Shown: positions 3,131 to 58,340, counted from the stretch's first letter. The stretch is DNA of 64,000 bases from Candidatus Nanoarchaeia archaeon (GCA_028714095.1 JAQTMY010000001.1:2147-66146); one strand, 5' to 3'. The notes: generated from the sequence alone by a model not told the origin. Made by a program: numbers and translations.

Positions 3131-3131
3131 A

Positions 3132-4193: not shown

Positions 4194-4645
4194 TCAAAGA
4201 AGTAGCAAGATTAATTGCAAACCATTCTATAGGCAACGGTATAAGAAAAATATTTTTTAAAATCTCAGGGGTAAAGATAGGAAAAAAAGTATTCGTTAAT
4301 CAGGGCCTTGTTATAGTCGATAATGGAAAAAAGCATATGGTTATATTGGAGGATTATGTAACATTAGCTCCAAGAATAACAATAATAACAAGATCATCCC
4401 CTTATAACATTCATCCTTCATTAAGAAAAGAAGACCTCCCAATAAAAGAAGGTAAAGTAATAATTGGAGAAGGGTCCTGGATAGGAACAAATGTAACAAT
4501 ATTGCCTAATGTTAAAATAGGAAAATGCTGTATTATTGGAGCAAATTCTTTGGTAACAAAAGACATTCCTGATTACAGTATTGCATTTGGCATTCCTGCA
4601 AAGCCAATAAGAAATCTAAAAGATGGAAATAATAAACCTAAATAA
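4172..4645 (+). CDS. left-handed beta-helix (hexapeptide-repeat) sugar N/O-acetyltransferase
   Basis: IGEGSWIGTNVTILPNVKIGKCCIIGANSLVTKDIPDYSIAFGIPAKPIR hexapeptide repeats, as in PglD/WbpD/NeuD-like enzymes. Confidence 0.7.
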   Translation: MGKIYHLIKEVARLIANHSIGNGIRKIFFKISGVKIGKKVFVNQGLVIVDNGKKHMVILEDYVTLAPRITIITRSSPYNIHPSLRKEDLPIKEGKVIIGEGSWIGTNVTILPNVKIGKCCIIGANSLVTKDIPDYSIAFGIPAKPIRNLKDGNNKPK

Positions 4646-17837: not shown

Positions 17838-17862
17838 AAAAAAGGTTAAATTTAACCTTTTA
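17838..17862. terminator. perfect palindrome between convergent genes (candidate bidirectional terminator)
   Basis: AAAGGTTAAATTTAACCTTT flanked by an A-run. It overlaps the stop codon of the S-layer-like gene. Confidence 0.35.
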
Positions 17863-20104
17863 CTACAGTCATGTCGCTTAAAGTTGTACCTTTAACAACA
17901 ACTGAGGTTCCAGCTAAGCTATAGTCTTTGAAGTTTTGCAAGACTTTAGCAGCTCTTCTGGTATCCATTGCGTTGTATCCAGCAACAACCATAGCTACTT
18001 TATCGCCGTTAGCAACTAATTTGATAAGTGCCTCACCAGCTGAATAAGTTGCTCTGAAGTCGTCAGCAGATCCTACGAACTGCTCAGCTACTGAGTTAAT
18101 AGCTGGTCCACCTACTACAATTAAATTGTAGTTAGCTGGGTTTGTAACTTCAGTGTCCAACATACTCTTGGTTTCGATAGCAGTTACCTCACAGTTACTA
18201 CCTGAAGTAGATGTTGTTGCACTTGTACCCTTTATTACGACGTTTGCAAATACCTGGTCTCCTGGAATATCTAAGACAACTTCATCACTTGCACCATGTG
18301 ACTTTGGATTTCTGATGATTACACCATATTCTGTTCTATGGTCTTCATCCTTGGTTCCAACGTTTGTTGCTTGCCATACCAATTCACCTGCTTCTTCAGA
18401 TGACAATGTGTCACCAAGTGAAGTAAAGATTACTGATGTAGCAGCAACTTGTGTAGCGTCCCAAGTTGTGTTTATGTACTCTGAGTTTGCCAAGTAAGTT
18501 GCATCATACAACTGTAAGTCAATAGATACGTTACCGGCAGCTCCTCCATCCTCATTGTGGATGTAGAATCTTGCATCAGTTCCTTTTGTGTTGTCATATT
18601 CTATGTGACCAAAGTTTGTGTATGTTGCATCAGCTGTTGTAGCATTTCCTGCATAAACTACCTTATTGTTATTGTCTTCATAGTAAATGCTGTATGCATC
18701 TACTGCAGCGCCTGCTCCAGCATAAACACCTGAAATCCAGATTTTGTCTGTTCTCCAGTCTGCAGCTGTTCCATTAGAGTTTGACAAATCTGCTCCGTCA
18801 ACAACCAATGCTTCATCTTTGTTTGCATGTATGTAAATTGATGGTGCAGCAGTTAATCCAGCACACCCACCACAGGCATCACTAAGATCAGCTGAGGTAT
18901 CAAATTCCATTGTAACAGTTGCATAATTGTCATCAGCAACACTTAAGCTGTCCAAACAAATACTTACATAGTTGTTTGGTAAGTCTAAGCACTCGCCAAC
19001 TCCAATTGGGTTATCTGAATCATCATTCCATACAAAGTCGTTTTCAATACCTAATTTTGGACCAGTTACTTCTGCAGTTGAAGTTGTTAAACTTGAAGCT
19101 GCATTGTCATTTAATCCACCTACATCCCATACCCAATTAGGATTGTCTTCGTCTTCACCAACGTAAGCATCTCCATCTTGGAAGGTTTCTTGGGAGTTTT
19201 TACCTATAACTAAAGTAGCAGATCTCTGATCCTTGTTGTCTTCATAGAATGTTTCATCGTTTGTAACTTCAATTCCATTTACTGTTTCAGTACTTGCTGA
19301 TGGAATTGTTTCTGAAACACCATCTACGTTAACAACAACTGCTCCACCTGATCCAACGTTCTCAAGTATTACCTTTTTGCCGTTTACTTCTACTTCGTCC
19401 CCAACATTCATAAAGTACTCAGTACCAACATAAGCTGTAAACTTAGTAGCTAAGGTTGTATCAATACTGGTAATTTTAAGGGTTTTGCCCAAGAATTTAA
19501 GTTCCAATGGTGTTGTACTTGAGGACAAGTTTGGCTGTATTGTCTCATCAAACAAATAGAAGTACTTTATTGCATCTCTGCCCATTTCCATTACTACACT
19601 TGTCTCATAGTCATCATCTGCGCTAGTAAGACTTGTAGCAATTGTGGCGTTTCCTGTTGCGAAAGCCAAGTTTTCTTGGACATCGTAGTCTGCACTTCTA
19701 AATGTAATTGTTGTATCTAATAAAGTTGGTATGTCGTCATCTTGTAATTCTGTATCAAATGTATAGCTGTTTGCATCAGCTACGGCTGCGCCTAATGGAA
19801 TTTGTTCGCTTTTTCCACCAGAAACAGTGATTGATCCTCCACCTGAACTACATACCTTACTTTCAAATTGCAATCCTGCTCCGATATCTAGGACTCCTAG
19901 ACTATCATCTGAAGCTGCGTTGGCACCTACAACGAATACGTTAGAGTTGTCATATTTTCCTCCAACAATAAATGGACTTGGGTACTCAGCTAAATCCAAA
20001 GCAAGTGCACCACCTGCGGTAGCTGCAAGCATACCAGCCCCGGCACCTATAGCAGCAATTTTTCTGATTGCTTTCTTTGCTTTCAGTACAAAGGTTTCTT
20101 GCAT
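17852..20104 (-). CDS. S-layer / major surface (glyco)protein candidate
   Basis: Sec signal peptide (…AAIGAGAGMLAATAGGALA). 750 aa, acidic, Thr/Ser/Gly/Ala/Asn/Asp-rich. Strong GGAGGTG SD 9 nt upstream. GC-shifted codon usage consistent with high expression. Confidence 0.55.
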   Translation of the reverse strand: MQETFVLKAKKAIRKIAAIGAGAGMLAATAGGALALDLAEYPSPFIVGGKYDNSNVFVVGANAASDDSLGVLDIGAGLQFESKVCSSGGGSITVSGGKSEQIPLGAAVADANSYTFDTELQDDDIPTLLDTTITFRSADYDVQENLAFATGNATIATSLTSADDDYETSVVMEMGRDAIKYFYLFDETIQPNLSSSTTPLELKFLGKTLKITSIDTTLATKFTAYVGTEYFMNVGDEVEVNGKKVILENVGSGGAVVVNVDGVSETIPSASTETVNGIEVTNDETFYEDNKDQRSATLVIGKNSQETFQDGDAYVGEDEDNPNWVWDVGGLNDNAASSLTTSTAEVTGPKLGIENDFVWNDDSDNPIGVGECLDLPNNYVSICLDSLSVADDNYATVTMEFDTSADLSDACGGCAGLTAAPSIYIHANKDEALVVDGADLSNSNGTAADWRTDKIWISGVYAGAGAAVDAYSIYYEDNNNKVVYAGNATTADATYTNFGHIEYDNTKGTDARFYIHNEDGGAAGNVSIDLQLYDATYLANSEYINTTWDATQVAATSVIFTSLGDTLSSEEAGELVWQATNVGTKDEDHRTEYGVIIRNPKSHGASDEVVLDIPGDQVFANVVIKGTSATTSTSGSNCEVTAIETKSMLDTEVTNPANYNLIVVGGPAINSVAEQFVGSADDFRATYSAGEALIKLVANGDKVAMVVAGYNAMDTRRAAKVLQNFKDYSLAGTSVVVKGTTLSDMTVVKG

Positions 20105-20402: not shown

Positions 20403-20855
20403 TTAATTTTTGCAGATTGCAAGTGTAATTTCAAACCTATTTTCACCAAAACCCCCCGCCTGGTAGTTCTCACTAATCATATTATTACCAGTACAATTCC
20501 CAATTTCTATAAATCCTTTACCTGTTTTGGTTATACTAAATCTATATTCTTTGCCAAAGAACTCGTTTAAACTAGGCTCAAGAGTTTTTCGTATAAAATC
20601 CCTGCAATTAAGATTCTGGCATGGGGCAATTTCATCATTATTACAATCCCTTATTATCTCTTCCATCTTGACATTGGAATCCAGGCAGGGAGTATATTCT
20701 AAAAAAGCAGGCATAAACTTAGAGGTCTTAATAACATCCTTAGTTTCAGTATTTTTATTCTTTGAGGAAAACACCAAAAAGAAACTTCCAATTATAACAA
20801 ATAAAATAACAATTACAACTAATCCTATTATTTCTGTCTGTCCTTTCTTATTCAT
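20403..20855 (-). CDS. class III signal peptide (archaeal type IV pilin-like) protein
   Basis: MNKKGQ|TEIIGLVVIVILFVIIG: KKG-Q processing site followed by a hydrophobic helix. Confidence 0.6.
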   Translation of the reverse strand: MNKKGQTEIIGLVVIVILFVIIGSFFLVFSSKNKNTETKDVIKTSKFMPAFLEYTPCLDSNVKMEEIIRDCNNDEIAPCQNLNCRDFIRKTLEPSLNEFFGKEYRFSITKTGKGFIEIGNCTGNNMISENYQAGGFGENRFEITLAICKN

Positions 20856-21387
20856 AGTTCTCCCCTATCAGTTTTCCAATAAAGTACTTTCCATTTACAG
20901 GGTAATAAACTGATATAGGAACACTAAATATGCTCTTGCTCTTAAAATTAGGTTTTGGATTTTGATAAATAATAAACTCATTGCAGTTCATTGGATAGTT
21001 TCCATAGTCTACCTTAAACATTTTTATACAATCTCCTTTCTTGATCTCAAAAGGAGCCTCAATAATCTCTATCCTGAATGTTCTAAACCCAAACACATCA
21101 TAATAATCCTCTTTGTTAACTTTTTCATTAAAGGCAATTATCTTTAAACTGTCTAAACATCTTTCTTCCTTATTCCTAAAGCTGCACTGGAGTTCTGGCA
21201 TTCTTGAAACATAGCTAAGTAAAACATCTGCTCTTTGATCAGCTAAATCCTGGGTTTTACTTTCAATGTCAGATTTTTGGAACTTAAAATAAAACACAAC
21301 AGCAAGAACCATAAGAATTATAATAACTATAACTACCATAATGGTTTCAATAAGTCCAATCTGTCCTTTCCTAGAATACTGTTTCAC
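20848..21387 (-). CDS. class III signal peptide (pilin-like) protein
   Basis: MKQYSRKGQ|IGLIETIMVVIVIII. Overlaps its neighbours by 8 and 17 nt. Confidence 0.55.
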   Translation of the reverse strand: MKQYSRKGQIGLIETIMVVIVIIILMVLAVVFYFKFQKSDIESKTQDLADQRADVLLSYVSRMPELQCSFRNKEERCLDSLKIIAFNEKVNKEDYYDVFGFRTFRIEIIEAPFEIKKGDCIKMFKVDYGNYPMNCNEFIIYQNPKPNFKSKSIFSVPISVYYPVNGKYFIGKLIGENYE

Positions 21388-22357
21388 AATCTCTCTCCCT
21401 AAGTCTATTATTTTCCTTATCTAAGTTATTTGCCCTGTCAAGATACTCTTCCGGATTAGTTACCTTTTGTAATAATAAATTCTTCAATAAACTATAGTCA
21501 CATCCACTAACCTTAGATGCTAACTCTTCAGCCTTGCCAGAATAAACTTTATTTATAACATTAAACTTCTCAACAGCCCTTTCATAGCTGCATTTATAGT
21601 TTGACGAAAAGATAGCTCCATACAACAAAGGCTTGCCAAAGAAAAAATACTGTTTATTGCCCTGTAATAATGCCCCTCTGCACTCCATATCATTCTCACT
21701 TTCACAATCCTTAGTTTTAATCTCAACAACCTCAAGATTCTCATTTTCTAGATTCTTAAGAGTATTAGACGTATCAATAAAGATGACTCTTACTCTGGAA
21801 TAATCCTCCAAAACCTGAGTTAGATAATTACTATCTACAGATTTTTTATATTCTACACTAAAAACATCAGGAATACTGCCCTCATTTACCCTTCCTGTTT
21901 TTGGGTCCTTAACTCCTTTAAGGTTTTCAGCTAAACTACCTCCAACCAAAACAAAGAGTGTTTCCTTGTCAGCCAAATAAAAGATGTTTCCAATTCTGTA
22001 AGGATATTTCCAGTCAGTCCCCCATATATAAAACTCACTGTTAAGTTCCTTGGGAGCAAAAATAATCTTGCTTGTCTTTAGCCTATTATTTCCAACTATT
22101 AAACTATCACAGTTAAATGGATCTAAACTTATCTTATCCTTTGTGTAAAAATTAGCAGGAATTGTTGTTTCTCCAGATATTGAAAAAGATATCAGCATAT
22201 CCTCCAATGTCCTTGTTTCAGTAAACTCAGTTATCTTATCGCTTGTCTCAACCTGTTTGAATGCAAACCTTACAAAGAAAGTCAATAATATAACTCCAAT
22301 AATCCCAATGAATATATATTTGAATACAGGAGAAATATCACCTTTTTTGTTTATCAT
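21371..22357 (-). CDS. pilin-like / class III signal peptide-like protein
   Basis: MINKKGD|ISPVFKYIFIGIIGVILLTFFV. ATGA overlap with the upstream giant gene. Confidence 0.4.
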   Translation of the reverse strand: MINKKGDISPVFKYIFIGIIGVILLTFFVRFAFKQVETSDKITEFTETRTLEDMLISFSISGETTIPANFYTKDKISLDPFNCDSLIVGNNRLKTSKIIFAPKELNSEFYIWGTDWKYPYRIGNIFYLADKETLFVLVGGSLAENLKGVKDPKTGRVNEGSIPDVFSVEYKKSVDSNYLTQVLEDYSRVRVIFIDTSNTLKNLENENLEVVEIKTKDCESENDMECRGALLQGNKQYFFFGKPLLYGAIFSSNYKCSYERAVEKFNVINKVYSGKAEELASKVSGCDYSLLKNLLLQKVTNPEEYLDRANNLDKENNRLRERDCETVF

Positions 22358-25300
22358 ATATAAATTATAGCAGACAATTCATTATTAAATTTATCCCTGC
22401 ACTTGATATAATACTTGGCTGCTCCCTCTACTAAGGTAGCTTCCTGAATCTTGGTGTCTTCACCAGTCATTAAAGTTCCATCTCCAAACTTGAATGAATC
22501 AATTGTATCATATTCACACTTAGCTTCCTCATCTAATTCAATATGCAATACAGAACTTGTTGTGTAAATCTGGTTTAGGTTAGGAGTATAATTATCAACT
22601 GTAATTTTTATGCTTAACTTATCCTCTGCCTTGTTCCCAGCAATGTCCTGGCATTTAATATATAATATATAATTTCCATTGCTTAAGTTTAAGTCTTGAC
22701 TGTGTTTAGTCCCATCTGTAGTCTCAAACTTAATCATATTGGCTATGACGGTGTTAAGGTCGCTGTAATAACAACTTGCTTTGTTCTCAGCTCCTCCAAT
22801 AGTTTCAACCTCTAAATTAATCTCTCCATTGTAGAAAGTTCCCTCAGGTCCGATATCGGTTATGTTTAATGGCTCTGTCTCCCTTGTCTCAAATACATAA
22901 CTCTCTGAATTATAATTTCTTGATTTTTCCCCTGGCTGATCAGCACATCTTATGTAGAATTTCCTGTATTGATGTACTGATTTTAAAATGGTTTTACATT
23001 CATAGCTTCCAGAAGCATAGCTGCTTACAGCCAATCCAGATTGTACACATGAAAATATATTGTTCATGTCATCATACTCAATGTCATTAGTGCTCCACTT
23101 GCATGTACTTGGCTCTGAAACAAATACTGACAAAGGCATGTCAACTATATTGGATGCAATATAAGCATTGTTTATTGGGCTTGTTCCATAGATTATTGGA
23201 GCGGTTAAATCAGGTCCAGTACCTATCTTGAATTTAATGTAATAATCTTTTTCATTAGCATTTCCCTTCCCGTCCTTACACCTTACATAAATTGTGTATT
23301 TCCCTCCATTGCTGAACTTTAGTGCTTTAGCATCAGTAAGCTCATCTGGAAGATTTAATGTTGTTTCATGCTCATATCTCAATAATGAATCCTGGAAATT
23401 GCTTGCCATACTATCAAATTCTTTTCCCTGCTCCATATCTATCTTACATTGACCTGGCTCATTAAGTTTAATTCCAATCTTTACAGCCTCATATGCTTTT
23501 ATTTCTGTTTCAACCTCATAGCCGTTTGCATCTTTCTTGTATTTTATTGTCTTGTCTTTTATTAATGGCTCAATTATAGGAGAATTAACATCTCTAGGAT
23601 TAAGGTCAACGCATTTTTCCTCTGTTGTTCCCTTGTTTACTAGCTCGCACGTTTTTCCCAAAGACTTGCATTTATACTCACTACATCCTAACTTTTCATC
23701 ATTGCATTTCTCGCAATTATCTCCGCCGTCAGGAGCACTCCACAGATTACATGAAATAGTATAAGTTTTTTCTTGTTGTTCTGAAGCAACAATATCAATT
23801 AACTTTAAGATTTGATAATAAGTCATTATTGTATTTACAGTCCCCATTATGTTTCCAAGAATTGTTTTCTGGACATAATTTTCTCCAACTTTTTCAATAC
23901 CTTTTTCAGCTAACTCTTCAGAAACTGCTTTCTCAATAAACTGTTTCTTAAGTTCTGGATTTGAAGCAATAGATAAAAGTCTCATATCACTAGTTAGAGC
24001 TAATTCTGCATTCTTTCTTATTCCTTCAATAACACTGTTTTCAACTACAGTTCCAAAAGCACTATATCCACTCAATATTTGTAAAGGATTTAATCCACCC
24101 TGAGCAGCTTTTTCTAAATTCTTTGAACCAAAAATCCCTCCATAAGCTGTAGTTCCAATCTGTAATCCTAAAGCTAACCAGTTACCCCAGTTCCATCTCT
24201 TGCTAAACTCAGAAACTCTCTCTCTGTTAGAGCTTCCAGAAACTAAAGCATTGACATTTCCTAAATCACTTTCTTTTAATTTGTAACCATTAAAGTATAG
24301 ATCATCATTTTCCTTTTCAGCGCTTGCTGTGTTTACATAACCATCAAAAGTAGCATCGCCATTGAAATTATAATAAGCTCCGCAATCTCCTAAACTTCTG
24401 CAATAATTATTTCCAGAAATAACCCAATCCTCAGCCATACACTGGCAGTTTTTTACGCAATCATATCCCTGATCCTGGTCAGTTATGAATCCCCAAACCC
24501 TTGCAAATCCTCCCCTTATCCACTCAACCTTGCATTCTTGATTCCCCTTGCTGCATTCTGAAGTTGAATCAGTGCTCACAGAAGAATTGCCTCCAGAATT
24601 ATAACTTACAGTCCAGAATTTCATTCCAGGAGGGATATTAGGAACACATTTTCCATTAGCGCTTTTCTCCCAGTCTTTATAAAATTTCTGTTCATCACCA
24701 TCTAAATATTGATTGTATTCATCTTCGCTTAAGAAAGAAAATATACTTCCGCTTCCTTCAGACCAATAACAATCCTTATTTACATTATCATTACAGCATT
24801 CTTTTGCAGCACATAATATCTGTGCTTCATTAACATTAGTGGATTCCTCAGTTGAGTCTAAACCACTAACCAGACTTCCTGCCTCTGCATCAGGGACAGG
24901 ATCCTCTAATCCAGAACATTTTCCCCCATAAAGATTTTTTAAAATATTAGCATCATTACAAGCACTGCATAACTGATATCTATTAGGAACACATCCAGCC
25001 TCAATATATCCTTTTTTCAAGCCAAAAGATTCAAGCAGAGAAGAAATATTACTTCCCTGGGTTTGCTGTATGCAAAACTCTTCCCTATAATCCTTGCATT
25101 GTTCAATAATTTCCTCGCCATTAATGCATAAAGCTCTGTACTGTCTGCTCCCAACCAAATCCTGCCCTTTTCCAACAGTACCTTCATAGATACACCATGA
25201 TTCCCCATTCTTTCTTTTCTCTCCTGCGTTTGGAGAACTTTCATATTCAGTGGTTACCTCACAGTTTACATCTTTGCATATATAATCTCCATACATAGGT

Positions 25301-26106
25301 TTAATCTCAGAAGAATTCCCGCATATTGTTCCAAAAGCATAATCACAATTTCCGCATGATTTGTCATTTAAAGTTGCTTTACAGTTTACTTCTGTAATAT
25401 ATCCTTTGTTATAGCTTGTGTCTTTGTTAGAAGAATAAACATTTTCCCTGTTGCCACAAGAATCATACCAGTAAACTTTTCCTTGATAACAGTCTGTATG
25501 GTGTTGTTTAGAACATCCGCAGCTTAACTTATCGTTGCTGCATAGCATATCTTTAAAAAATCCTTCCCTGGTTTCATTATTCCCCTCTGCCATGTTGCAT
25601 GCGCTTCTTGTTGTGAATGAACAGGAATTTCCATTTACACAGCATCCAGTTTCCTGGCTTCTAGATTTAGCCAGACATGTTTTTTCATCAGTTATAGAGC
25701 TGTCAAAAACAGTGCCAACTCCAGTATATTTCGAGCCTGTTTCCTTGCATTTTACCTCTGTAACAAAAAATGCCTCTGTTCCAATCATACAGCATCCATT
25801 ACTGCATTGAGGAACGCTACAAGAAGCATCAGAACTAAAAGTTCCTTTTTTATTATCGCATGTAGCTTGTGGAGTATTCTTAAAACATCTTCCATCGTCC
25901 TGCGAAAAACAGCAACCTAAATTGCAATAGCTTGTCTGTTCGCATGTTGCATAATTTTTTCTGAATCCATTCATGCAATATTTTTCATCAGTATACTGGC
26001 AGTATTCTCCAGAAGTAGTTTTTTCACAGCATGCATCAGTAGCCATAACAATGTTTACTAAACTAAGCAAAACCATTCCAAAAATAAAAAATTTAAACGC
26101 TTTCAT
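22354..26106 (-). CDS. giant (1250 aa) cysteine-rich secreted surface protein, paralog A
   Basis: Sec signal peptide MKAFKFFIFGMVLLSLVNIVMA. More than 90 Cys. Conserved blocks shared with 26957..30286 (RKNGESWCIYEG...VGSRQYRALCINGEEI, CNLWSAPDGGDNCEKC, GPDLTAPII). Four C-terminal ~100-aa modules each ending in Y.Y(V/I)(R/K)C.D..GN. Confidence 0.6.
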   Translation of the reverse strand: MKAFKFFIFGMVLLSLVNIVMATDACCEKTTSGEYCQYTDEKYCMNGFRKNYATCEQTSYCNLGCCFSQDDGRCFKNTPQATCDNKKGTFSSDASCSVPQCSNGCCMIGTEAFFVTEVKCKETGSKYTGVGTVFDSSITDEKTCLAKSRSQETGCCVNGNSCSFTTRSACNMAEGNNETREGFFKDMLCSNDKLSCGCSKQHHTDCYQGKVYWYDSCGNRENVYSSNKDTSYNKGYITEVNCKATLNDKSCGNCDYAFGTICGNSSEIKPMYGDYICKDVNCEVTTEYESSPNAGEKRKNGESWCIYEGTVGKGQDLVGSRQYRALCINGEEIIEQCKDYREEFCIQQTQGSNISSLLESFGLKKGYIEAGCVPNRYQLCSACNDANILKNLYGGKCSGLEDPVPDAEAGSLVSGLDSTEESTNVNEAQILCAAKECCNDNVNKDCYWSEGSGSIFSFLSEDEYNQYLDGDEQKFYKDWEKSANGKCVPNIPPGMKFWTVSYNSGGNSSVSTDSTSECSKGNQECKVEWIRGGFARVWGFITDQDQGYDCVKNCQCMAEDWVISGNNYCRSLGDCGAYYNFNGDATFDGYVNTASAEKENDDLYFNGYKLKESDLGNVNALVSGSSNRERVSEFSKRWNWGNWLALGLQIGTTAYGGIFGSKNLEKAAQGGLNPLQILSGYSAFGTVVENSVIEGIRKNAELALTSDMRLLSIASNPELKKQFIEKAVSEELAEKGIEKVGENYVQKTILGNIMGTVNTIMTYYQILKLIDIVASEQQEKTYTISCNLWSAPDGGDNCEKCNDEKLGCSEYKCKSLGKTCELVNKGTTEEKCVDLNPRDVNSPIIEPLIKDKTIKYKKDANGYEVETEIKAYEAVKIGIKLNEPGQCKIDMEQGKEFDSMASNFQDSLLRYEHETTLNLPDELTDAKALKFSNGGKYTIYVRCKDGKGNANEKDYYIKFKIGTGPDLTAPIIYGTSPINNAYIASNIVDMPLSVFVSEPSTCKWSTNDIEYDDMNNIFSCVQSGLAVSSYASGSYECKTILKSVHQYRKFYIRCADQPGEKSRNYNSESYVFETRETEPLNITDIGPEGTFYNGEINLEVETIGGAENKASCYYSDLNTVIANMIKFETTDGTKHSQDLNLSNGNYILYIKCQDIAGNKAEDKLSIKITVDNYTPNLNQIYTTSSVLHIELDEEAKCEYDTIDSFKFGDGTLMTGEDTKIQEATLVEGAAKYYIKCRDKFNNELSAIIYI

Positions 26107-26909
26107 GCAAACCTATTCTCTCCCTGAATAGCAAACTGGAAAATATACTCATTTCCTTCTTTGGTTATTGTATAAACCTTGTCAGGATATGGTTTTTTCA
26201 GATAAAGTTTATATTCTCCTTTCTTGGCCAGCATATAAGTTAATGTATCAAAGTTTCCGCTTACAGCCTCTCCGCTAAATACATCCCATCCGTTTATTAC
26301 TTCCTGAGAAACATCATATAAATTTCCAAGGGGATAATCAAACATAACTTCAAATTTATCTTCAGATACACTTATATCTTTAGATTTTCCCTTAAGAGTA
26401 ACCAACCAGTTAACATTAAGAACAACACTATCAGGTCTTATAACAAATTGATAGTTTGGTTTATCTTGTACAATTATATTATAAGATTTAAGATTTCCAG
26501 TATTTTTTATCTCATTTAAACAAGAATCCATAAAATACCCTACATTTTCATTAAGCTGATCTTCCATATTCTTAAGAGTTAGCATCCTATTACTGCAGCT
26601 TTCTTTGTCAGGAATATTATAACATAAATAACTTATTTTATTGTCAGCATAAAGAATATAGGTTCCTTCGGGAGTCTCTAGATATCCTCCTTGCTTGCCA
26701 ATAGCCTGCAATAACGAATTAGGGCTGTTTAAACTATTATCATACCCGCAGCTTATTATTGCCTCTTTGATAGACTCCATCTCACCTTCAAGACTTTCAG
26801 TAGTAACAGGCATGAATATTGTCTTTCTACCAATTAAAAACAAAGCAACTAAAACAACTATAACTATTCCTAATATAACAAATAAAGTTACCTGACCTCT
26901 TTTTCCCAT
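26103..26909 (-). CDS. class III signal peptide (pilin-like) protein, 268 aa
   Basis: MGKRGQ|VTLFVILGIVIVVLVALFLIG. Homologous N-terminus to 62792..63535. ATGA overlap with the downstream giant gene. Confidence 0.6.
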   Translation of the reverse strand: MGKRGQVTLFVILGIVIVVLVALFLIGRKTIFMPVTTESLEGEMESIKEAIISCGYDNSLNSPNSLLQAIGKQGGYLETPEGTYILYADNKISYLCYNIPDKESCSNRMLTLKNMEDQLNENVGYFMDSCLNEIKNTGNLKSYNIIVQDKPNYQFVIRPDSVVLNVNWLVTLKGKSKDISVSEDKFEVMFDYPLGNLYDVSQEVINGWDVFSGEAVSGNFDTLTYMLAKKGEYKLYLKKPYPDKVYTITKEGNEYIFQFAIQGENRFA

Positions 26910-26956
26910 TTTATCTCTCCTTTGATTTATTTTTATATTTTAAAAAATTTTGCTTT

Positions 26957-29900
26957 TCAAACATTTATACTATAGGCGGGGTTTATGTTCCCTTCACTAT
27001 CATTACATATAAAATAATACCTTCCCCCCTCCACAATAAATAAATGTTCCCCAACAACTTTCTCAGTTTCAGTTCCCTTACCAAAACCAAAATCACTCCT
27101 TGAATATTCGCAATCCGCATCCTCATCCAGTACAACATGTACAGTATTATCCTGCCTATATAACTGGGTTATTATTGGATAATAAACATCCTTGATAATA
27201 TTAAGATTAATAATCTGACTTGCTTTATTCCCAGCAACATCAATACATTCTATATTATAATTATAATTTCCCAATGCTAAATCTTCAAATTCCTGGCTAT
27301 GTATTATATTATCAGTTTCCTTAAATTCTATTCCATTATAGCTACATATTGCTTTTCCGTTCTCGGCCCCGCCGGAAGTTGCAACATTAAGGGTAAACGA
27401 ATTACTGTATAATGTTCCAGACTTTGGGGAATAATCCTCAATGACTAAAGTATCAGATTGTTTTAATGTTAATGGATAAGCATCCTCATTTACATTTTCA
27501 GCATTGTCAGAACATTTAAAATAATAATTAACTAACTTATCTTCAAACTTTAAATTAACATTAAAGCTGCATATAAATTTATTTTCTCTGCTTATACAAT
27601 TAGTTTCCTCTTTCATACCATCATAGTCCTCATTCTCACTAGAATATTTACATTTAGTTGGTTCATTTGTATAAATATTAATTAATATTTTAGTTAAATC
27701 TGCCTGGATATAACTCCCATCAAGAGGATCGCTTGTCTCAATAATTGGAGCAGTCAAATCTGGCCCTTCTTTTGTGTTAAATCTTATTAAATAAGAAGCT
27801 TCGTTGGCATTAGAAGTCTTTCCCTTACATCTTACATATAAATTATATTTTTTGTTTGGTTCAGTAAGAATATTTAATGAATGTTTTGTTTCATAATAAC
27901 CTTCTCCAAAATAACTTACCATTTCATTGTAATTATCATCTACATTTTCAGAAAACTTACATTGTGCAACTTTATCTGTTTTAATCCCTAAACTTAGTCT
28001 TGTATAAGCAGGAACATCTGGATTTATTTTATATCCTTTGGTTTCTTCATTTAACTTAAATCCCTTAGTTAAATTCTCAGGCCATGCAGAAATTATTGGA
28101 GAGCTTACATCTCTAGATTCTACCTTAACACAGGCAGGTCTGTCAGTTCCAGCATTCTCTTCTATAAACTCACACAAAGTTCCTAAACTTTCACATTTAT
28201 ATTTTGAACATTCTTTGAATTTTCCATATTCATTATCTACCTTTCCGCAATCTTCGCAATTATCCCCATTGTTTGGAATGTTCCACATATTGCATTCAGT
28301 GGAAACTACTCTTGATTCCTTTGTTGTTGCAAAAATATTTAAGATTGTAAACACAGCAAACACAACCAAAGCAACAGTAACAATTGTTCCAATCGTTCCA
28401 GAGCTAAATAAAGTTCCTAACCATCCCCCCCCAGACTCACTAGCAGTTCCTCCGGCCTGTATAATATTTCCAAATAAGATATTACCAAACGTAGTATCCG
28501 CTCCAGTAAATAAAGTAGCAACTTCAGCGGCAGCAATTCCTGCTGTCCCCAAAACCCCCAAAGTATCAGCACTCACATCAAAAAATCCGCCAGTAAATAT
28601 TCCAGTATTAATTTTATTATAATCTAAACCTTGATTTTTATTAATATCCTCATAATTTATTTTTCCAGCATACAATCCAGAATTAAGTTCAGCTAATTTT
28701 TCCTTGTTAATCAATAAAAGAGCTTCTGTAATTTTAGTCAAAGGCATATTTTTCAGTTCAGGATATTGATCCAAAAAATCACCAAAATCATCCTCAGGAT
28801 CTTCAATTACACTATCCCATTTTCTTGAAAAACCATCATTATTAAATTCATTCTTCCAGTTATATTTAGCTCCGCAATCCCCAGCAGCATTACACAAATA
28901 ATTGCTTAACTGCAGCCATTTATTTGAATAAGCTTCACATCCGCTTGAACAATCATTTGTATCTATGACAGAATCCTGGCTCCAAACCGTCAAAGCACTA
29001 TTAACTCCGTTTTCACAAATCTTAGAATTCTCTCCAAGATTGCCAGGAACAACCAAAGGCAAACATCGTCCATTGACTTCATTTAATTTTAATTGTTCTT
29101 TCTCCATATCTTCGGTCTTTGTCGTATTCAAGGGCAGCCAGTAACAGTCATTATTTTTAGACAAACAGCATTTAAGATCATTTTCCATTGCATTTGCATA
29201 ATCTATAACTTCTCCTTTGTACAAATCATCATCGTCATAAGTCATAGGGATTAATTCATAAGCAGAGTTGCATTCAGTCATACATTTTTCATAATTATTT
29301 ATTTTGCAGGAAGCCTCTCTAAAAGTTTCACCATTAACAGTAACGTCTGCATAAACACAAAATTCATTTCTGTAATCTTCACATGGCTCCTCAATCTCCT
29401 CGCCATTAATGCATATATGTCTGTAATGCCTGCTTCCAACAGAATCTAAACCAGGACCAGTAGCAGAATCATAAATACACCAGGACTCTCCATTCTTCCT
29501 GAAAACTCCAGTACCTTTAGTATTTTCATCCTTATAAGTACTCTCACAGTTTATGCTATAGCAGTCAACTTTATTTTTTTCCTCTCTGCATTTAAGCCCT
29601 TTCTGATAATCACATTTCTTGACTAAACTTTCTTTATTTCCGCAGCTGTCAAAAGAATAAACATCTCCCTCATAACATTGGTTATAGCTGTTCTTAGTGC
29701 ATCCACAAAAACCTACATCAGAACATAATTTATTTTCATAAAATTCTCCAGAACATGAATTGGAAGTTGTATACTTACATCCTTCATCCAAACAACAACC
29801 ATAAATTCCTTCTTGGCAGCTTAAACTGCATGAACTTTCTCCAGTTCCTTCCTGAAAAGTAAAATCTAAATTATTATAATCATTTGCTGTTTGCTCACAT

Positions 29901-30286
29901 TTAAACTTATTGACATAACTGCACTCAGTTCCTATCTTACAGCAACCCTCCTGGCATTTGGAATAAGCACTACAGTCAGGACTTGAAAAAAATTCTCCGC
30001 CTTTTTCAGTGCATTCCTGTTTAGAAGTATTGTCAAAACATGAACCTTCAGATTTTAAAAAACAGCAGCCATACTCCTCTGCCTTGACATCCTTAAAATT
30101 TAATAAAGAAATTGAGAAAATAGCAACAATTATGATTATAATTTCAAATAAAGCCTTAGCTCTCGCAAACCTCTCTTTCATAACATAAACAACAATAAAA
30201 CTTATTTTAAATAGTTTACTAATGAACATAATCATCCAGATTGGAGGGATTAACAACTCTTTTTGGATCACAATAACTCTTCTCAA
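26957..30286 (-). CDS. giant cysteine-rich secreted/membrane surface protein, paralog B
   Basis: The likely true start is the internal Met at 30181 (MKERFARAKALFEIIIIIVAIFSISLL... signal peptide), giving about 1074 aa. Same conserved blocks as paralog A. Internal Gly/Ala/Thr-rich hydrophobic region with one clear 22-aa hydrophobic helix. Confidence 0.6.
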   Translation of the reverse strand: MRRVIVIQKELLIPPIWMIMFISKLFKISFIVVYVMKERFARAKALFEIIIIIVAIFSISLLNFKDVKAEEYGCCFLKSEGSCFDNTSKQECTEKGGEFFSSPDCSAYSKCQEGCCKIGTECSYVNKFKCEQTANDYNNLDFTFQEGTGESSCSLSCQEGIYGCCLDEGCKYTTSNSCSGEFYENKLCSDVGFCGCTKNSYNQCYEGDVYSFDSCGNKESLVKKCDYQKGLKCREEKNKVDCYSINCESTYKDENTKGTGVFRKNGESWCIYDSATGPGLDSVGSRHYRHICINGEEIEEPCEDYRNEFCVYADVTVNGETFREASCKINNYEKCMTECNSAYELIPMTYDDDDLYKGEVIDYANAMENDLKCCLSKNNDCYWLPLNTTKTEDMEKEQLKLNEVNGRCLPLVVPGNLGENSKICENGVNSALTVWSQDSVIDTNDCSSGCEAYSNKWLQLSNYLCNAAGDCGAKYNWKNEFNNDGFSRKWDSVIEDPEDDFGDFLDQYPELKNMPLTKITEALLLINKEKLAELNSGLYAGKINYEDINKNQGLDYNKINTGIFTGGFFDVSADTLGVLGTAGIAAAEVATLFTGADTTFGNILFGNIIQAGGTASESGGGWLGTLFSSGTIGTIVTVALVVFAVFTILNIFATTKESRVVSTECNMWNIPNNGDNCEDCGKVDNEYGKFKECSKYKCESLGTLCEFIEENAGTDRPACVKVESRDVSSPIISAWPENLTKGFKLNEETKGYKINPDVPAYTRLSLGIKTDKVAQCKFSENVDDNYNEMVSYFGEGYYETKHSLNILTEPNKKYNLYVRCKGKTSNANEASYLIRFNTKEGPDLTAPIIETSDPLDGSYIQADLTKILINIYTNEPTKCKYSSENEDYDGMKEETNCISRENKFICSFNVNLKFEDKLVNYYFKCSDNAENVNEDAYPLTLKQSDTLVIEDYSPKSGTLYSNSFTLNVATSGGAENGKAICSYNGIEFKETDNIIHSQEFEDLALGNYNYNIECIDVAGNKASQIINLNIIKDVYYPIITQLYRQDNTVHVVLDEDADCEYSRSDFGFGKGTETEKVVGEHLFIVEGGRYYFICNDSEGNINPAYSINV

Positions 30287-30704
30287 TATCGCAGGGGTTT
30301 ATTACCTCTGGTTTGATCTTATCAGAAACTTTTGAATTTAAAAAATCCTGATAGTTAAAAACTGCCTTCATTAACTCTCCTCTAAGATCATAAGGATTAA
30401 GTTCTTCGATACCTAGGTACTCTTTTAGTTTATCAACTAAATCCGGGAACAAGGGATTCTCGAAAAAGTTAGAATCCATTAAAAAGTCTAAATCGTTCCT
30501 TAAAAAAGATCTATTCAAAAATAAAGCATCTTTTCCTGAATCTTCAAAAAGTCTCCCAGCAATACAATATCTTCCATCTCTCCATTTATGGATATATAAT
30601 AAATGAGTTCCTGCAGGCTCACCACGAACAGATCTTTTTAAAGAATGAGGGGGTTCAATAAACCTAGGATTTAAGTTGTTCATCCTAAAAATAAAGTGAC
30701 TCAA
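30219..30704 (-). CDS. hypothetical protein
   Basis: 161-aa ORF upstream of paralog B. No motif recognised. Confidence 0.3.
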   Translation of the reverse strand: MSHFIFRMNNLNPRFIEPPHSLKRSVRGEPAGTHLLYIHKWRDGRYCIAGRLFEDSGKDALFLNRSFLRNDLDFLMDSNFFENPLFPDLVDKLKEYLGIEELNPYDLRGELMKAVFNYQDFLNSKVSDKIKPEVINPCDIEKSYCDPKRVVNPSNLDDYVH

Positions 30705-30795
30705 AGGGAGTATATAAAGATTATTGTAATAAAAAGAACAGCAACGTATTTAAGTATCCAGAACACTTCTTTTATAGATATTTTCTCAGGAGAAA

Positions 30796-31236
30796 ATGGA
30801 AGAGCTAGAACTATTAAAAAAAATTTTGGACCAGGAATTGGGAGCAGAAAACAGGTATGTAGAACATATAAATAAAATAAAAACCCCCATAATCAGAAAA
30901 CTTTTGAAAGATTTAAAGGCAGAAGAATCAAAACACAAAAGACAAATTCTGAAAATAATAAAAAATTTAGACAGGAAATTTGATGATAAAAAATATGCTG
31001 AAAGTGATAAGATAGAAGAAGAGCGACCCGGTACAGAAGATTTTATACTTGTTCAGGCTCTATTGGAAACCGATAAGGAAGCAGAGGAAGAAGCGATGAA
31101 TTCTTATAAAGAAGCAGCAGAACTAACAAATTATTCAGAGCTGAAAACACTTTTTATAGAATTCAAAAACGATGAGGAAATTCACTTAAAGAAAATAAAA
31201 AATCTAATTGATCAGTTAAGCTTGTTTAACAGATAA
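30796..31236 (+). CDS. ferritin-like / rubrerythrin-like four-helix protein
   Basis: Two E...ExxH pairs (AEESKHK and NDEEIHLKK) in a 146-aa helical protein. Confidence 0.45.
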   Translation: MEELELLKKILDQELGAENRYVEHINKIKTPIIRKLLKDLKAEESKHKRQILKIIKNLDRKFDDKKYAESDKIEEERPGTEDFILVQALLETDKEAEEEAMNSYKEAAELTNYSELKTLFIEFKNDEEIHLKKIKNLIDQLSLFNR

Positions 31237-31782
31237 TTATTTATTAAAACATCCATAAAATCCTCTTGTGTAATCTCCAAACTCAACCCCATAAGCTCTT
31301 GCCCAAGCATCAATATAAACATTACCTCCATTCTTTAGGTTTACACTTAAATACTGGTGAGGGGAAATGATACAAACCATACTTATTCTTTGTTCAATAT
31401 CTTTATCATCAAAGCAGCCAGATTTAACCAATAAAGTTCTTAAGATATAATTAAAGGTCATACAATACATATACTTGCTTTTCTGGTGCCATATCTTATC
31501 CAAGTTAGAAACAAAAAGCCAGTTAAATCTTGAATAAGTTTTATATTTTCCTCCAGTCCATTTGGTTGTTACTAAATCATATGCCTTGTACAAACATTCT
31601 TCCTGGTCCTTGGTTTTACTTAGTTCTTCAATCCATACATTCATTCCAGCAGGAACCTTGTCTGGAATTGGTTTTTTCCATAAAAGATTAGGGATACTTA
31701 ACAAAATAAGTCCTACTAACAGGATTACTACTAAAATTTTTATTTTATTTTTTTTAACTCTTAAGATTATTCTCCTCATCAT
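31237..31782 (-). CDS. transglutaminase-like cysteine protease-fold protein, membrane-anchored
   Basis: N-terminal TM, then a Cys (YCMTFNYIL) ... His (ISPHQYL) ... Asp (YIDAW) arrangement. Confidence 0.45.
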   Translation of the reverse strand: MMRRIILRVKKNKIKILVVILLVGLILLSIPNLLWKKPIPDKVPAGMNVWIEELSKTKDQEECLYKAYDLVTTKWTGGKYKTYSRFNWLFVSNLDKIWHQKSKYMYCMTFNYILRTLLVKSGCFDDKDIEQRISMVCIISPHQYLSVNLKNGGNVYIDAWARAYGVEFGDYTRGFYGCFNK

Positions 31783-31810
31783 TCAAAAAACAATAAAAAT
31801 ATATAAAAAA

Positions 31811-32386
31811 TTAACGTTTTTTATTAATTATATACAAACCGGCAGTCATCGCTCCCAATAGACCAAACACTAAGTCTAGGGCATTATTTAGATAATCTCC
31901 AACCTGATTTTTAGCCCCAAGCCATATCGAAGGAACTAATTCTAGAATTTCATAAAATCCAGCAACGCCCAAAGACATTAAAATAATGTAAAAAAACCAG
32001 GTAGATTTCTTCAGGTTGTTCTTTAGGTGTGGCTTTATTATATGATTAATCATAAAAGCAACAGTAAAAATCCCAAAGAAATGAACTGGATTGTCATATT
32101 TCAGAACTCCAGGGATAATCCAGAAATCATAAAGTCTAGTATTTCCTATATTTATATGCCCCCCTAGAATATGCAGAGTTAATAAGATTGTTAAACCCAA
32201 CATTGATAAAACAGGAAAATTGAATTTTTTATAGAAAATAACAAAGAATAATATAACAAAAGACATCAGGGCAGTATAATAAAGAAATTCATAATTGCCT
32301 TTCAATACAAAAAAAATCGTAAAAATTAACATGAATAATATTGAGTAAATCAACATTAAGTTTAACGCAGTCTTTTTCTCCATCAA
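31811..32386 (-). CDS. polytopic membrane protein
   Basis: 191 aa with 5-6 TM helices. Confidence 0.4.
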   Translation of the reverse strand: MMEKKTALNLMLIYSILFMLIFTIFFVLKGNYEFLYYTALMSFVILFFVIFYKKFNFPVLSMLGLTILLTLHILGGHINIGNTRLYDFWIIPGVLKYDNPVHFFGIFTVAFMINHIIKPHLKNNLKKSTWFFYIILMSLGVAGFYEILELVPSIWLGAKNQVGDYLNNALDLVFGLLGAMTAGLYIINKKR

Positions 32387-32424
32387 TACTTAACTATAAA
32401 ATTAAAATATAAATCTTTCTAAGC

Positions 32425-33573
32425 TTAAGAAATAAAATCTATCTCAACTTCCAGACAGTCCTGAGTAGGATATTCCTCAACAACCGCAGCCATGAACTCT
32501 TCTCTCTTAAGCTTGCCTCTTAAAGACAAGATAATATTTTTCGACGTCAAAAGTCTAAGATTTAGCTCATCAATATCAATAAAATCTTCTTTGATACCAT
32601 ATTTATTAATTAAATAATCACGTAGTTTTAATAATTTTTTCAGATAATCTTTTTTATTTTTAAGGCCGTCAAGTTTTTTTCTGTAATCAAAACCGGGACT
32701 TAGTTCTTTAAGGTAAAAAACTCCTCTTATCAAGGTGCCTTCATCAGTAATTATGTCAAAGTTATTGGCAACATTTTTTGCTCTTCTCTTTATTCTATTG
32801 GTTAATTGCACTCTGTCTTTAAGTTTAGAGGTGCAATAATGAATATTAAATTTAATTTTTTCCTTGGCAGCAAATCTTAACAGTTCTAGAGCATATTCCT
32901 CAGAGCTTTTTACAGCATAGGAAATATCATCCTTAGTTGTAAATCCTTTTTCCAACAATTTATTTTGTTTATTATCAGAAACTTCCAGTTCATTTAGGTT
33001 GAGAAATTTAATCTTATCATTTTCCTTAATAAAAAGTATTATATCTTTAAGAAATTTCTCTTCTGGGATGACAGGTAATTCAACCCCAACATCCCATTCA
33101 AAATCAAAAGCCAGTTTAATCCTGCCCCAGTATTTTTTATCATTTAAATCCAAATGGAATCTTATTTCATCTAATCCAGCCTCATATAGTCTAGCTAAAT
33201 TTTCCTTATTTACTAAATCCAAAGAAGTATATAGATGAATATGAAAAGATTTTCCAAATTCTTTTTTTAATAATTTTATGTATTTAATAGTTCTGTCCAA
33301 TTTGCATAAAGGATCTCCTCCAGTAATCCCTGCACCTTCTGCATTAATCAGTTTAGCTTCAGCAATTAAATCTTTAACATCCTCAATTTTCCACTCGTCA
33401 GCATAGATAATATCTTTATTGTATTTCTCATCAGAGATTGGGCAGAAATAACAATTTCTAGGACATAATCCAGTTATAAAAACAACTAATTTAGACCCCT
33501 TTACACACAACTTGCATCCTTTAGGTAATTCTCCTAATTTATAAGAATAATATCTTGTTTTTTCTACTCTCAT
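32425..33573 (-). CDS. radical SAM protein (PflA/activase-related archaeal family)
   Basis: GLCPRNCYFCP CxxxCxxC cluster near the N-terminus, with GAGITGGDP downstream. Confidence 0.7.
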   Translation of the reverse strand: MRVEKTRYYSYKLGELPKGCKLCVKGSKLVVFITGLCPRNCYFCPISDEKYNKDIIYADEWKIEDVKDLIAEAKLINAEGAGITGGDPLCKLDRTIKYIKLLKKEFGKSFHIHLYTSLDLVNKENLARLYEAGLDEIRFHLDLNDKKYWGRIKLAFDFEWDVGVELPVIPEEKFLKDIILFIKENDKIKFLNLNELEVSDNKQNKLLEKGFTTKDDISYAVKSSEEYALELLRFAAKEKIKFNIHYCTSKLKDRVQLTNRIKRRAKNVANNFDIITDEGTLIRGVFYLKELSPGFDYRKKLDGLKNKKDYLKKLLKLRDYLINKYGIKEDFIDIDELNLRLLTSKNIILSLRGKLKREEFMAAVVEEYPTQDCLEVEIDFIS

Positions 33574-50992: not shown

Positions 50993-50994
50993 AC

Positions 50995-58125: not shown

Positions 58126-58213
58126 TTCAATTAATTCTAATCATTTATTTTCAGAAGTTAAAACTATTCTTATCAAAACCTTTAAATAACCCTTTTCTCA
58201 CAAAAAACATTAA

Positions 58214-58287: not shown

Positions 58288-58340
58288 TATCAAAATATTT
58301 ATATAATAAAATAAATTCAATAATTAAGAGGTGAAACCTT

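Follow-up and report, generated by a model that had tools for sequence, protein, structure and literature searches.

Archaeal type IV pilus loci of clade 1 encode two large secreted proteins together with at least five minor pilins and S-layer-like proteins (Makarova 2016, PMC4858521), and loci of this 'system 1' or Epd type occur in Methanococcales, Methanobacteriales, Thermococcales and some DPANN archaea (PMC4858521; bioRxiv 10.64898/2026.04.22.720090). In Methanococcus maripaludis the pilus genes are scattered over four or more loci, the ATPase being encoded elsewhere, and the pilins processed by EppA have a short leader ending in Gly and a Gln at +1 (PMC3875500), as do proteins encoded by the locus described here. 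This locus lies in a window of 64 kb, the whole stretch of DNA analysed, from a Candidatus Nanoarchaeia archaeon. With the clade 1 loci it has in common a cluster pairing two large secreted proteins with about five minor-pilin-type proteins (four in the window) that have class III-type N-termini and mostly +1 Gln, the frequent association with S-layer-like genes and the possible scattering of pilus genes. It differs in that the clade 1 large proteins carry the PilY-like DUF2341, which Pfam finds in neither giant here, these forming a Cys-rich family of their own, and in that the window contains no gene for EppA, ATPase, TadC or FleN/MinD, while none of its four small proteins has a Pfam match to PF04021/DUF361 or PF07790 up to E 1. 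Natural fusions of a pilin module to a giant, found in relatives of the present proteins, are not described for the clade 1 system in PMC4858521 or bioRxiv 10.64898/2026.04.22.720090.

The bacterial FimU-PilVWX-PilY1 tip complex is likewise encoded by an operon of several minor pilins and a non-pilin protein of ~1100 aa with a Sec signal, which the minor pilins carry. However, there is no sequence relationship, the locus here has two paralogous giants of which one is membrane-anchored, and archaeal envelopes have neither outer membrane nor secretin. The GspG-H-I-J-K pseudopilins of type II secretion are also among the closest known systems. In modular type IV pilins, among them Streptococcus sanguinis PilB (PMC8179133), one polypeptide combines a pilin module with a functional, adhesive one, an architecture also seen in the fusions of relatives. 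Those fusions differ in having as passenger a Cys-rich head and Ig rod of ~800-1100 aa, the two-lobed 230-aa domain of the pilin-like protein p268 is larger than a standard pilin head, and in the window the modules are split into adjacent, coupled genes. The bindosome-type proteins of Sulfolobus (bioRxiv 10.64898/2026.04.22.720090; PMC4858521) similarly rely on a class III N-terminus to keep a large ectodomain with its function on the archaeal surface, but they are solute-binding proteins without homology to those described here, where the functional domain mostly forms a polypeptide of its own. We put forward, at about even confidence, the view that the locus encodes a clade-wide Woesearchaeota/Pacearchaeota cell-surface complex built around a split giant modular pilin.

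Gene order and its conservation

Six co-directional ORFs occupy the minus strand, namely those of giant B (26957-30181), p268 (26103-26909), giant A (22354-26106), p328 (21371-22357), p179 (20848-21387) and p150 (20403-20855). For giant B the ATG at 30181 is the most likely start (1074 aa); from the alternative TTG at 30286 (1109 aa) the gene would run into the upstream ORF. The original prediction held all six genes to be tightly coupled, and this stands for four of the junctions, where p268/giant A and giant A/p328 share 4 nt (ATGA), p328/p179 17 nt and p179/p150 8 nt, but not for giant B and p268, which are separated by a 47-nt spacer with an oligo-T/TATA-like stretch and a GGAG ribosome-binding site. 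Next downstream on the same strand is the gene for a 750-aa S-layer protein (17852-20104; 39.8 bits to Pfam S_layer_C, PF05124, cut-off 23.9), which has its own upstream region of ~300 nt. This gene had been passed over in the original prediction, as had the central transmembrane segment of giant B and a second pair of genes with a p268 paralog at 60021-63535.

In Woesearchaeota/Pacearchaeota MAGs the cluster begins with giant B, followed by p268 and giant A; after a fifth pilin-like gene (p165x) come p328, p179, p150 and the S-layer gene. The fifth gene, present in most orthologous loci, has been lost here, leaving four pilin-like genes instead of five. A survey of gene neighbourhoods found giant homologs almost always adjoining pilin-like genes: 40 of 42 loci have p268 upstream of the giant, and 33 of 37 have p328, p179 and p150 downstream. 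Another giant is also present upstream in 37/42, and an S-layer homolog follows the cluster in 34 of the 37 loci with enough flanking sequence. The cluster is found across the whole clade, in a housekeeping neighbourhood of PCNA, TFIIS and RNA-polymerase-subunit genes.

The pilin-like proteins

In all four small proteins a basic leader of 5-8 residues, the last two being [KR]G, runs into a helix of strong hydrophobicity (19-residue Kyte-Doolittle window mean 2.5-3.4). Their class III-type N-termini are MGKRG/Q in p268, MINKKG/D in p328, MKQYSRKG/QIGLIETIMVV in p179 and MNKKG/QTEIIGLVV in p150, with predicted cleavage (marked by the slash) in the contexts RG/QV, KG/DI, KG/QI and KG/QT, respectively. 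The FlaFind rule, which reportedly goes back to Szabo and colleagues in 2007, is said to call for a short basic leader ending in [KR]-[GA] and then a hydrophobic stretch of ~20 residues. When a motif scan of this type covered all start codons of the 64-kb window, in each of its six frames, only seven ORFs fitted the rule, these four among them. The motif is also conserved among orthologues, KRGQ being kept in 63 of 66 for p268, with KGQxE in p150 and KKGQIxMMETIMV in p179, so the class III-type N-termini originally proposed are borne out. Gln occupies +1 in three of the four proteins here and is dominant in four of the five families. A Glu is found at +3 in p150 and at +6 in p179; the +5 Glu is not kept.

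Beyond the N-termini the proteins are diverse. p268 consists of a transmembrane helix and a 230-aa two-lobed alpha/beta globular domain with four conserved Cys. p328 has a domain of ~300 aa after its N-terminus and no Pfam or PDB relative, its N-terminal 80 residues being related to p165x (hhalign probability 97.9), and p150, the smallest, has four conserved Cys and is related over its N-terminal 57 residues to p179 (hhalign probability 96). The N-terminus of p179 is the most bacterial-pilin-like of the four: in a PDB profile search it aligned in register with Geobacter PilA-N, non-significantly (E 0.25), and it gave sub-threshold NCBIfam matches to GspH (0.032), PilA (0.041), ComGC (0.066) and also GspG. 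No pilin model of Pfam or NCBIfam reached threshold for p268, p328, p179 or p150. Were the pilin likeness superficial, the small proteins could be type II membrane proteins with uncleaved signal-anchors, for instance serving the giants as scaffolds or as chaperones of folding or disulfide formation. We consider this improbable, as [KR]G-Q, with constant spacing to the helix, is conserved in five families and dozens of species, the helix Glu is conserved in p179 and p150, the structural neighbours of p268 show an enrichment of pilins and pseudopilins, and the same class III-type motif opens the fused giants of relatives.

The giants, their proposed anchors and their fusions to p268

Giant A (1250 aa) and giant B both have Sec-type signal peptides and are paralogs, as had been recognised from shared blocks: BLASTP aligns them with 30% identity over ~1200 aa (E 1e-141), and the alignment contains RKNGESWCIY, VGSR.YR..CINGEEI, CN[LM]W..P..GDNCE.C and GPDLTAPII. 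The figure of more than 90 Cys in each was an overcount; giant A has 68 and giant B 58 (5.4% each), in a family with a median of 66 (range 55-81) and dozens of invariant Cys. In giant A four small modules of the GCC...C type come first, and the conserved head, rich in Cys, reaches to about residue 620. Then follow a linker that is variable and disordered (residues 624-755), an amphipathic helix (751-773), a Cys knot (CNLW...CSEYKCKSLG) and, as the rod, four to five domains resembling Ig/FN3; no segment of giant A is itself transmembrane (hydrophobicity score 0.98). Giant B has a Cys-rich N-terminal ectodomain and a C-terminal Ig-like rod, separated by a hydrophobic centre (residues 588-621, Kyte-Doolittle 19-residue window mean 2.68) which we read as part of a membrane hairpin.

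Pfam gave only weak Ig-like matches for giant A (Y_Y_Y, Big_13, DUF4625) and none for giant B, and neither giant matched the S_layer_N or S_layer_C models (PF05123/PF05124). The C-terminal 450 aa align structurally with tandem Ig/FN3 ectodomains and with the rods of bacterial giant adhesins, so that structural matches place the giants among extracellular arrays and in no intracellular family, in keeping with the surface location first envisaged; no beta-propeller or vWA domain of the PilY1 type appears among the structural matches of the giant, and no homolog of the 570-aa N-terminal head was detected. A search with giant A yielded 574 homologs, and relatives are encoded on 408 stretches of species-representative genomes; the 120 matches listed come from Woesearchaeota, Nanoarchaeota and unclassified MAGs, all named 'hypothetical' bar one LysM-domain protein. 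The giant family is so far undescribed.

How giant A might be held is suggested by p268. In the window the two are separate genes joined by their ATGA overlap, with no fusion, and across the p268 family a giant-A-type gene follows within 150 nt downstream in 54 of 70 cases; in the remaining cases another large secreted protein is sometimes next (e.g. loci L049 and L063). A p268 profile search matched 9089 representative clusters. Natural p268::giant fusions make up at least 40 sequence clusters in relatives, and among the best 147 clusters retrieved 42 (at least 600 aa) are such fusions, in which a p268 module at residues 1-255 precedes a body bearing the giant motifs GESWC (33/42), SEYKCKSLG (30/42) and GDCG (38/42). 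One of them, P0245, gives E-values of 9e-23 against the window's p268 and of 9e-27, 1e-20 and 8e-13 against giant A; its fused gene can be read in the DNA of nine contigs. Because relatives carry these fusions we propose, from sequence comparison, that p268 would act as anchor or carrier of giant A; the core of the original prediction, that pilin-like proteins anchor or present the giants, gains from both the adjacency and the fusions. Nor did any of the three outcomes named in advance as refuting that prediction arise, be it N-termini at odds with the class III rule, giants apart from pilin-like genes or an intracellular family for the giants. To our knowledge no modular pilin carries a passenger as large as ~800-1100 aa. 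Anchoring appears complementary across the family. Of 27 giant-B-type orthologues, 26 have one or two strong hydrophobic segments immediately preceding the CxxW motif (two, hairpin-like, in 15 of the 27), no such central segment is present in any of 34 fused giants, and giant A has neither hairpin nor fusion.

The window holds a second pair of pilin-like carrier and large secreted protein, again on the minus strand and with an ATGA overlap. Its first gene, with no ORF upstream on the same strand, is the p268 paralog p247 (62792-63535; MQKRG/QITLFVIIG; hhalign probability 99.4 and E 5e-21 against the p268 profile), and its second encodes a 924-aa signal-peptide protein (60021-62795) that is unrelated to the giants and has no Pfam or NCBIfam family. 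The locus might also be taken for a pseudopilus-type export device, in which a short piston like that of type II secretion, made up of the four or five pilin-like proteins, would push the giants, once exported by Sec, and further large proteins (the 924-aa partner of p247, for example) through or into the S-layer lattice. This is highly improbable: the fusions argue for permanent covalent or stoichiometric attachment of the cargo and not transient pushing, no ATPase or platform gene is nearby, and we know of no type II-like secretion across the S-layer in archaea.

Proposed assembly, the S-layer and the probable role of the complex

As first noted, there are no ATPase or platform genes locally: among the 46 window ORFs scanned with Pfam, which take in every ORF of at least 300 aa, none encodes a type IV pilus or secretion ATPase, a TadC/FlaJ platform or a prepilin peptidase. 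The assembly machinery must therefore lie elsewhere, and none of these three was seen in the flanks of related loci either. The operon encodes no candidate major pilin. In the assembly we favour, the disulfide-rich giants (about 1100-1250 aa), each with a conserved head rich in Cys and a rod of four to five Ig-like domains, would be exported by Sec, giant B being held in the membrane by its central hydrophobic hairpin with both halves outside and giant A, without an anchor of its own, by p268. The class III signal peptide of p268 would be cut after [KR]G, its N-terminal helix then lying in the membrane or in the core of a type IV filament. With p268, the translationally coupled p328, p179 and p150 (and p165x in most relatives) would most probably form a minor-pilin-type tip, priming or pseudopilus bundle, assembled by the prepilin peptidase, ATPase and platform encoded elsewhere and displaying the giants at or through the S-layer. 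The genes of fused giants stand alone, and no set of minor pilins is found near them, so the pilin module may be just a membrane anchor without a filament.

The S-layer gene invites another arrangement, an S-layer anchoring or organising complex in which the giants, fixed by the hairpin of giant B and by p268 for giant A, would be pillars of the pseudo-periplasm that tether or pattern the S-layer protein, the pilin-like proteins serving as permanent membrane anchors or spacers that would stay in the membrane throughout. We regard this as somewhat unlikely. The S-layer protein has no hydrophobic segment and no transmembrane anchor, and such an arrangement would also suit the S-layer homolog directly downstream in nearly all loci, the housekeeping setting, an Ig-like rod that adjoins the membrane segment, the even conservation of both ectodomains and the ability of fused giants to do without neighbouring minor pilins. 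However, the S-layer link is one of synteny alone, to a gene with its own upstream region; adjacency is missing in three of 37 loci and for the stand-alone fusions, and the conserved [KR]GQ cleavage-type motif in five different proteins is left unexplained. Methanococcales use the same PF05124 S-layer family, and we know of no such giants there, which also counts against it.

The role inferred from these features is most likely one in adhesion or in the envelope, and for the split giant modular pilin that we favour the likeliest output would be adhesion. Conservation along both giant ectodomains is even and fairly high, which counts against this explanation because it is unusual for an adhesin recognising variable hosts. 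Together with the clade-wide housekeeping setting and the S-layer linkage (34/37), it means that a constitutive envelope component fits better than a host-specific, fast-evolving adhesin. In its boldest form, which we think unlikely, the locus would specify a previously unrecognised envelope machine of Woesearchaeota/Pacearchaeota derived from type IV filaments, a five-protein pilin-like stalk carrying a heterodimer of the giants' disulfide-rich heads through the S-layer with one giant tethered by its hairpin and the other on a pilin module; this would be a contact or attachment organelle of uncultured, presumably host-dependent archaea, whose 570-aa head may be host-binding or membrane-engaging. 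The cluster itself has been conserved in a large group of archaea that are tiny and probably depend on a host.

Gene cluster organisation and conservation

Six co-directional ORFs on the minus strand fill positions 20403-30286 and encode two giant, Cys-rich, Sec-targeted proteins and four pilin-like proteins, the latter named here by their size in residues: giant B (26957-30181, 1074 aa counted from the ATG), p268 (26103-26909), giant A (22354-26106, 1250 aa), p328 (21371-22357), p179 (20848-21387) and p150 (20403-20855). An upstream TTG at 30286 is an alternative start for giant B that would run into the preceding ORF. The tight coupling originally predicted for all six genes is seen at four junctions, which overlap (ATGA, ATGA, 17 nt and 8 nt), but not between giant B and p268, where a 47-nt spacer contains an oligo-T/TATA-like stretch and a GGAG ribosome-binding site. 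The surroundings in the window (PCNA, ScpB, eRF1, class I tRNA synthetase, DegT and glycosyltransferases) are those of housekeeping and glycan synthesis. Directly downstream of the cluster, after about 300 nt, lies the gene for a 750-aa S-layer protein (17852-20104), which scores 39.8 bits with Pfam S_layer_C, whose cut-off is 23.9. At 0.40 in the 18-20 kb bin, the G+C content of this gene region is clearly above the roughly 0.30-0.33 of the sequence around it; the six-gene cluster has 0.31-0.37.

A Pfam scan of 46 window ORFs, including all those of at least 300 aa, identified no prepilin peptidase and no ATPase or platform protein of a type IV pilus, in line with the original observation that ATPase and platform genes are absent locally. 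In Methanococcus maripaludis the pilus genes are spread over four or more loci, and the ATPase gene lies at a different place (PMC3875500). That the cluster specifies a pseudopilus-type export device seems to us very improbable.

The window derives from a 'Candidatus Nanoarchaeia archaeon' MAG. Giant A has 574 homologs; the 120 listed derive from Woesearchaeota, Nanoarchaeota or unclassified MAGs, and all are named 'hypothetical' save one given a LysM-domain name. Relatives are encoded at 408 stretches of species-representative genomes, and mapping the window proteins onto the ORFs of 77 fetched loci revealed a near-invariant order, [PCNA] - giant B - p268 - giant A - (p165x) - p328 - p179 - p150 - S-layer protein. 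Where the flanks were long enough, p268 lies upstream of the giant in 40/42, a second giant upstream in 37/42, and the three downstream pilin-like genes (p328, p179, p150) follow in 33/37. An S-layer homolog is present in 34 of 37 such loci, and no hydrophobic anchor was found in the 750-aa S-layer protein of the window; these data speak for a reading of the locus as an S-layer-tethering pillar complex, which overall we consider rather unlikely.

The fifth pilin-like gene, p165x (about 165 aa, KKGQLLxQPFxYIFALI), occurs in most orthologous clusters between giant A and p328 (e.g. L001:13676-14164, L004-L011), and its product resembles p328 over the N-terminal 80 residues. It is missing from the window and from several related loci, among them its closest relative L002 as well as L012, L043 and L069. 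Five further genes stand between PCNA and giant B in the window (30219-33573), encoding a radical SAM protein, a DUF2238 protein, a 181-aa protein, a rubrerythrin-like protein and a 161-aa unknown; in most relatives PCNA is directly upstream of giant B. Because the cluster keeps the same housekeeping neighbourhood (PCNA, TFIIS, an RNA-polymerase subunit, ScpB and GT2) in dozens of species, a mobile-element or viral origin was rejected. The cluster is among the most conserved lineage-specific loci of Woesearchaeota/Pacearchaeota.

The giant proteins and their proposed attachment

Giants A and B are paralogs, as proposed, with 30% identity over about 1200 aa (E 1e-141), and their alignment recovered every sequence block quoted in the original prediction. 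Their cysteine content had been overestimated at more than 90 per protein, the actual counts being 68 and 58 (5.4% each). Both start with an ordinary Sec-type signal peptide and have evenly conserved ectodomains, with invariant cysteines by the dozen and variation confined to two insert regions and a central linker. The predicted structure of giant A (mean pLDDT 78.8) comprises a confident, Cys-rich N-terminal part extending to about residue 620, a disordered linker (624-755), a helix (751-773) and a confident, β-rich C-terminal part. None of the six cluster proteins reached the threshold of any Pfam or NCBIfam family, a PDB sequence search with the giant profiles returned nothing significant, and fusexin-like fusogens were absent from the giants' structural matches. 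Their assignment as S-layer proteins or as DUF2341/PilY-like adhesins was rejected, neither type of model giving a match. The giants are outside every known family.

In four relatives' loci (L017, L039, L051, L056) the giant paralogs form tandem arrays of three or four, and L017 alone has a second p268 copy. A requirement for one p268 per giant was rejected on the basis of such loci, often with a single p268; this single gene is always immediately 5' of the last, giant-A-type gene.

The two giant types differ in the stretch immediately ahead of the CxxW motif. In 26 of 27 giant-B-type proteins it contains a strong hydrophobic segment or a pair of them (a pair in 15; median score 2.82), which we read as a hairpin that would place both halves outside the cell. 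The same site is only weakly hydrophobic in giant-A-type proteins (median 1.5; 0.98 in the window giant A), and the segment is absent from all 34 of 34 giants that are naturally fused to a p268 module. From these sequences each giant would therefore have one way of being held, by its own hairpin, by a covalent pilin module or by a separately encoded pilin module.

Pilin-like N-termini and natural fusions

The class III-type N-termini predicted for the four small proteins, i.e. a short basic leader ending [KR]G followed by a hydrophobic helix, proved rare in the window and conserved beyond it. A scan of all possible start codons in six frames of the 64 kb, for [KR][GA][ALIFQMVED][ILMVTAS] no more than 15 residues from the start and then a hydrophobic stretch, found seven fitting ORFs, four of them p268, p328, p179 and p150. 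The motif is kept in orthologues from dozens of species, as KRGQ in p268 (63/66), KGQxE in p150, KKGQIxMMETIMV in p179, KKGQLLxQPF in the p165x family and KKG with a variable +1 residue in p328. Profile-profile comparison indicates that the five families have only their N-terminal 30-80 residues in common; pilins are likewise alike only in their N-terminal part. A short leader ending in Gly, with Gln at +1, is the signature of the EppA-processed pilins of M. maripaludis (PMC3875500). Class III processing would leave mature proteins starting at Q6 in p268 and in p150, Q9 in p179 and D7 in p328. Curated pilin models gave no significant match to any of the four proteins, PDB sequence searches with the p179, p150 and p328 profiles found none, and among 38 scanned p328 orthologues no family was matched by more than one. 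That the N-termini are uncleaved signal-anchors, their pilin resemblance merely superficial, we regard as improbable.

A secreted-protein cluster on the plus strand of the window (50234-58847) ends with a classic-looking pilin. Its products are a 252-aa protein; one of 1113 aa that combines a Cys-rich N-terminus with tandem repeats of the YNQTTPAMDY type; a tail-fibre-like protein of 928 aa that carries EPTP repeats and a Peptidase_S74 intramolecular-chaperone domain; a Cys-rich membrane protein of 339 aa; and a protein of 168 aa. The last of these begins with MNKKGAIELSISTIVIVVIG, has a weak UpsA-pilin match (E 0.012) and could be a major pilin of the source organism.

A search of 1.84 billion proteins with the p268 profile matched 9089 representative clusters at E up to 1e-3. 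Among the best 147 of these matches, 42 are fused proteins of at least 600 aa, in which the p268 module forms residues 1-255 behind a class III-type N-terminus and is followed by a giant-type body bearing the giant signature motifs GESWC.Y[DE] (33/42), SEYKCKSLG (30/42) and GDCG (38/42). The representative P0245 (1282 aa), whose gene was seen on nine contigs, is matched by the window p268 with E 9e-23 and by giant A with E 9e-27, 1e-20 and 8e-13. The point at which the fusions join corresponds to the C-terminal face of p268 (...FQFAIQG) and the first GCC module of giant A. The named fusion proteins originate from Woesearchaeota or Nanoarchaeota MAGs. Three fusion genes that were looked up stand alone among archaeal housekeeping or glycan genes, and neither a set of minor pilins nor an S-layer gene lies near them.

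Several other genes were observed near these fusions. On archaeal contigs, two of the three have a bacterial-type LGT gene (prolipoprotein diacylglyceryl transferase, PF01790; L078/L079:5638-6417, L081:8744-9511) no more than 5 kb upstream, and the gene directly downstream of one (L081:14104-19041) encodes 1645 aa with matches to C1q and H-type lectin. Next to a fused gene in L080, and divergent from it, positions 1391-4313 hold a GT2 gene (409 aa) followed by two of 479 and 497 aa without Pfam matches, a block that resembles, by gene sizes and order alone, two adjoining minus-strand window ORFs (41709-44622, about 490-500 aa, no Pfam match) beside a GT2 glycosyltransferase.

In split loci a giant-A-type gene follows the p268-family gene within 150 nt in 54/70 cases. 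At L049 and L063 the p268-family gene is followed instead by a large secreted protein unrelated to the giants, and the window itself holds a second pair (60021-63535, minus strand) in which p247 (62792-63535), a p268 paralog (hhalign probability 99.4), overlaps by ATGA the gene for a 924-aa signal-peptide protein. This partner is secreted, unrelated to the giants and of no known family; its C-terminus contains LYYNAGES, reminiscent in sequence of the AYNAG motif of lytic transglycosylases. In Woesearchaeota/Pacearchaeota the p268 module family seems to serve generally as a carrier of large secreted proteins.

Assembly model and implications

We rate the locus as a type-IV-pilin-associated surface complex. 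The best-supported model, to which we give an even chance, is a split giant modular pilin with a minor-pilin-type bundle. In its central step, which is better supported than the model as a whole, p268 would anchor or carry giant A. Beyond this step, p328, p179 and p150 would most probably form the bundle with p268, to be assembled by a peptidase, ATPase and platform encoded elsewhere and to display the giants at or through the S-layer. The cluster resembles modular pilins and bacterial minor-pilin/PilY1 complexes, and fits the overall layout put forward for archaeal clade-1 type IV pili, in which two large secreted proteins are combined with five or more minor pilins and with S-layer-like proteins (PMC4858521), although the giants here lack DUF2341. 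The split-giant-pilin model is compatible with host attachment, but we lean toward a constitutive envelope role because the cluster is clade-wide and the giants are evenly conserved.

Full-text searches of the literature turned up neither the operon nor the giant family. The DPANN-specific family cls.004306 (NEQ255), for which PMC6393860 gives the description 'secreted protein next to S-layer-like proteins', may be related. What is new is threefold: a family of giant Cys-rich proteins, a pilin-giant architecture that occurs both split and fused, and a p268 carrier family of very large size.

Woesearchaeota and Pacearchaeota are abundant, uncultured and thought to be host-dependent, and to our knowledge almost nothing is known of their cell surface. 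For work on enrichment cultures, the cluster proteins offer targets that suit cryo-ET labelling, proteomics and complex prediction, and the split and fused forms together provide a concrete, testable model of how an archaeon may attach a protein exceeding 1000 aa to a pilin-like anchor.
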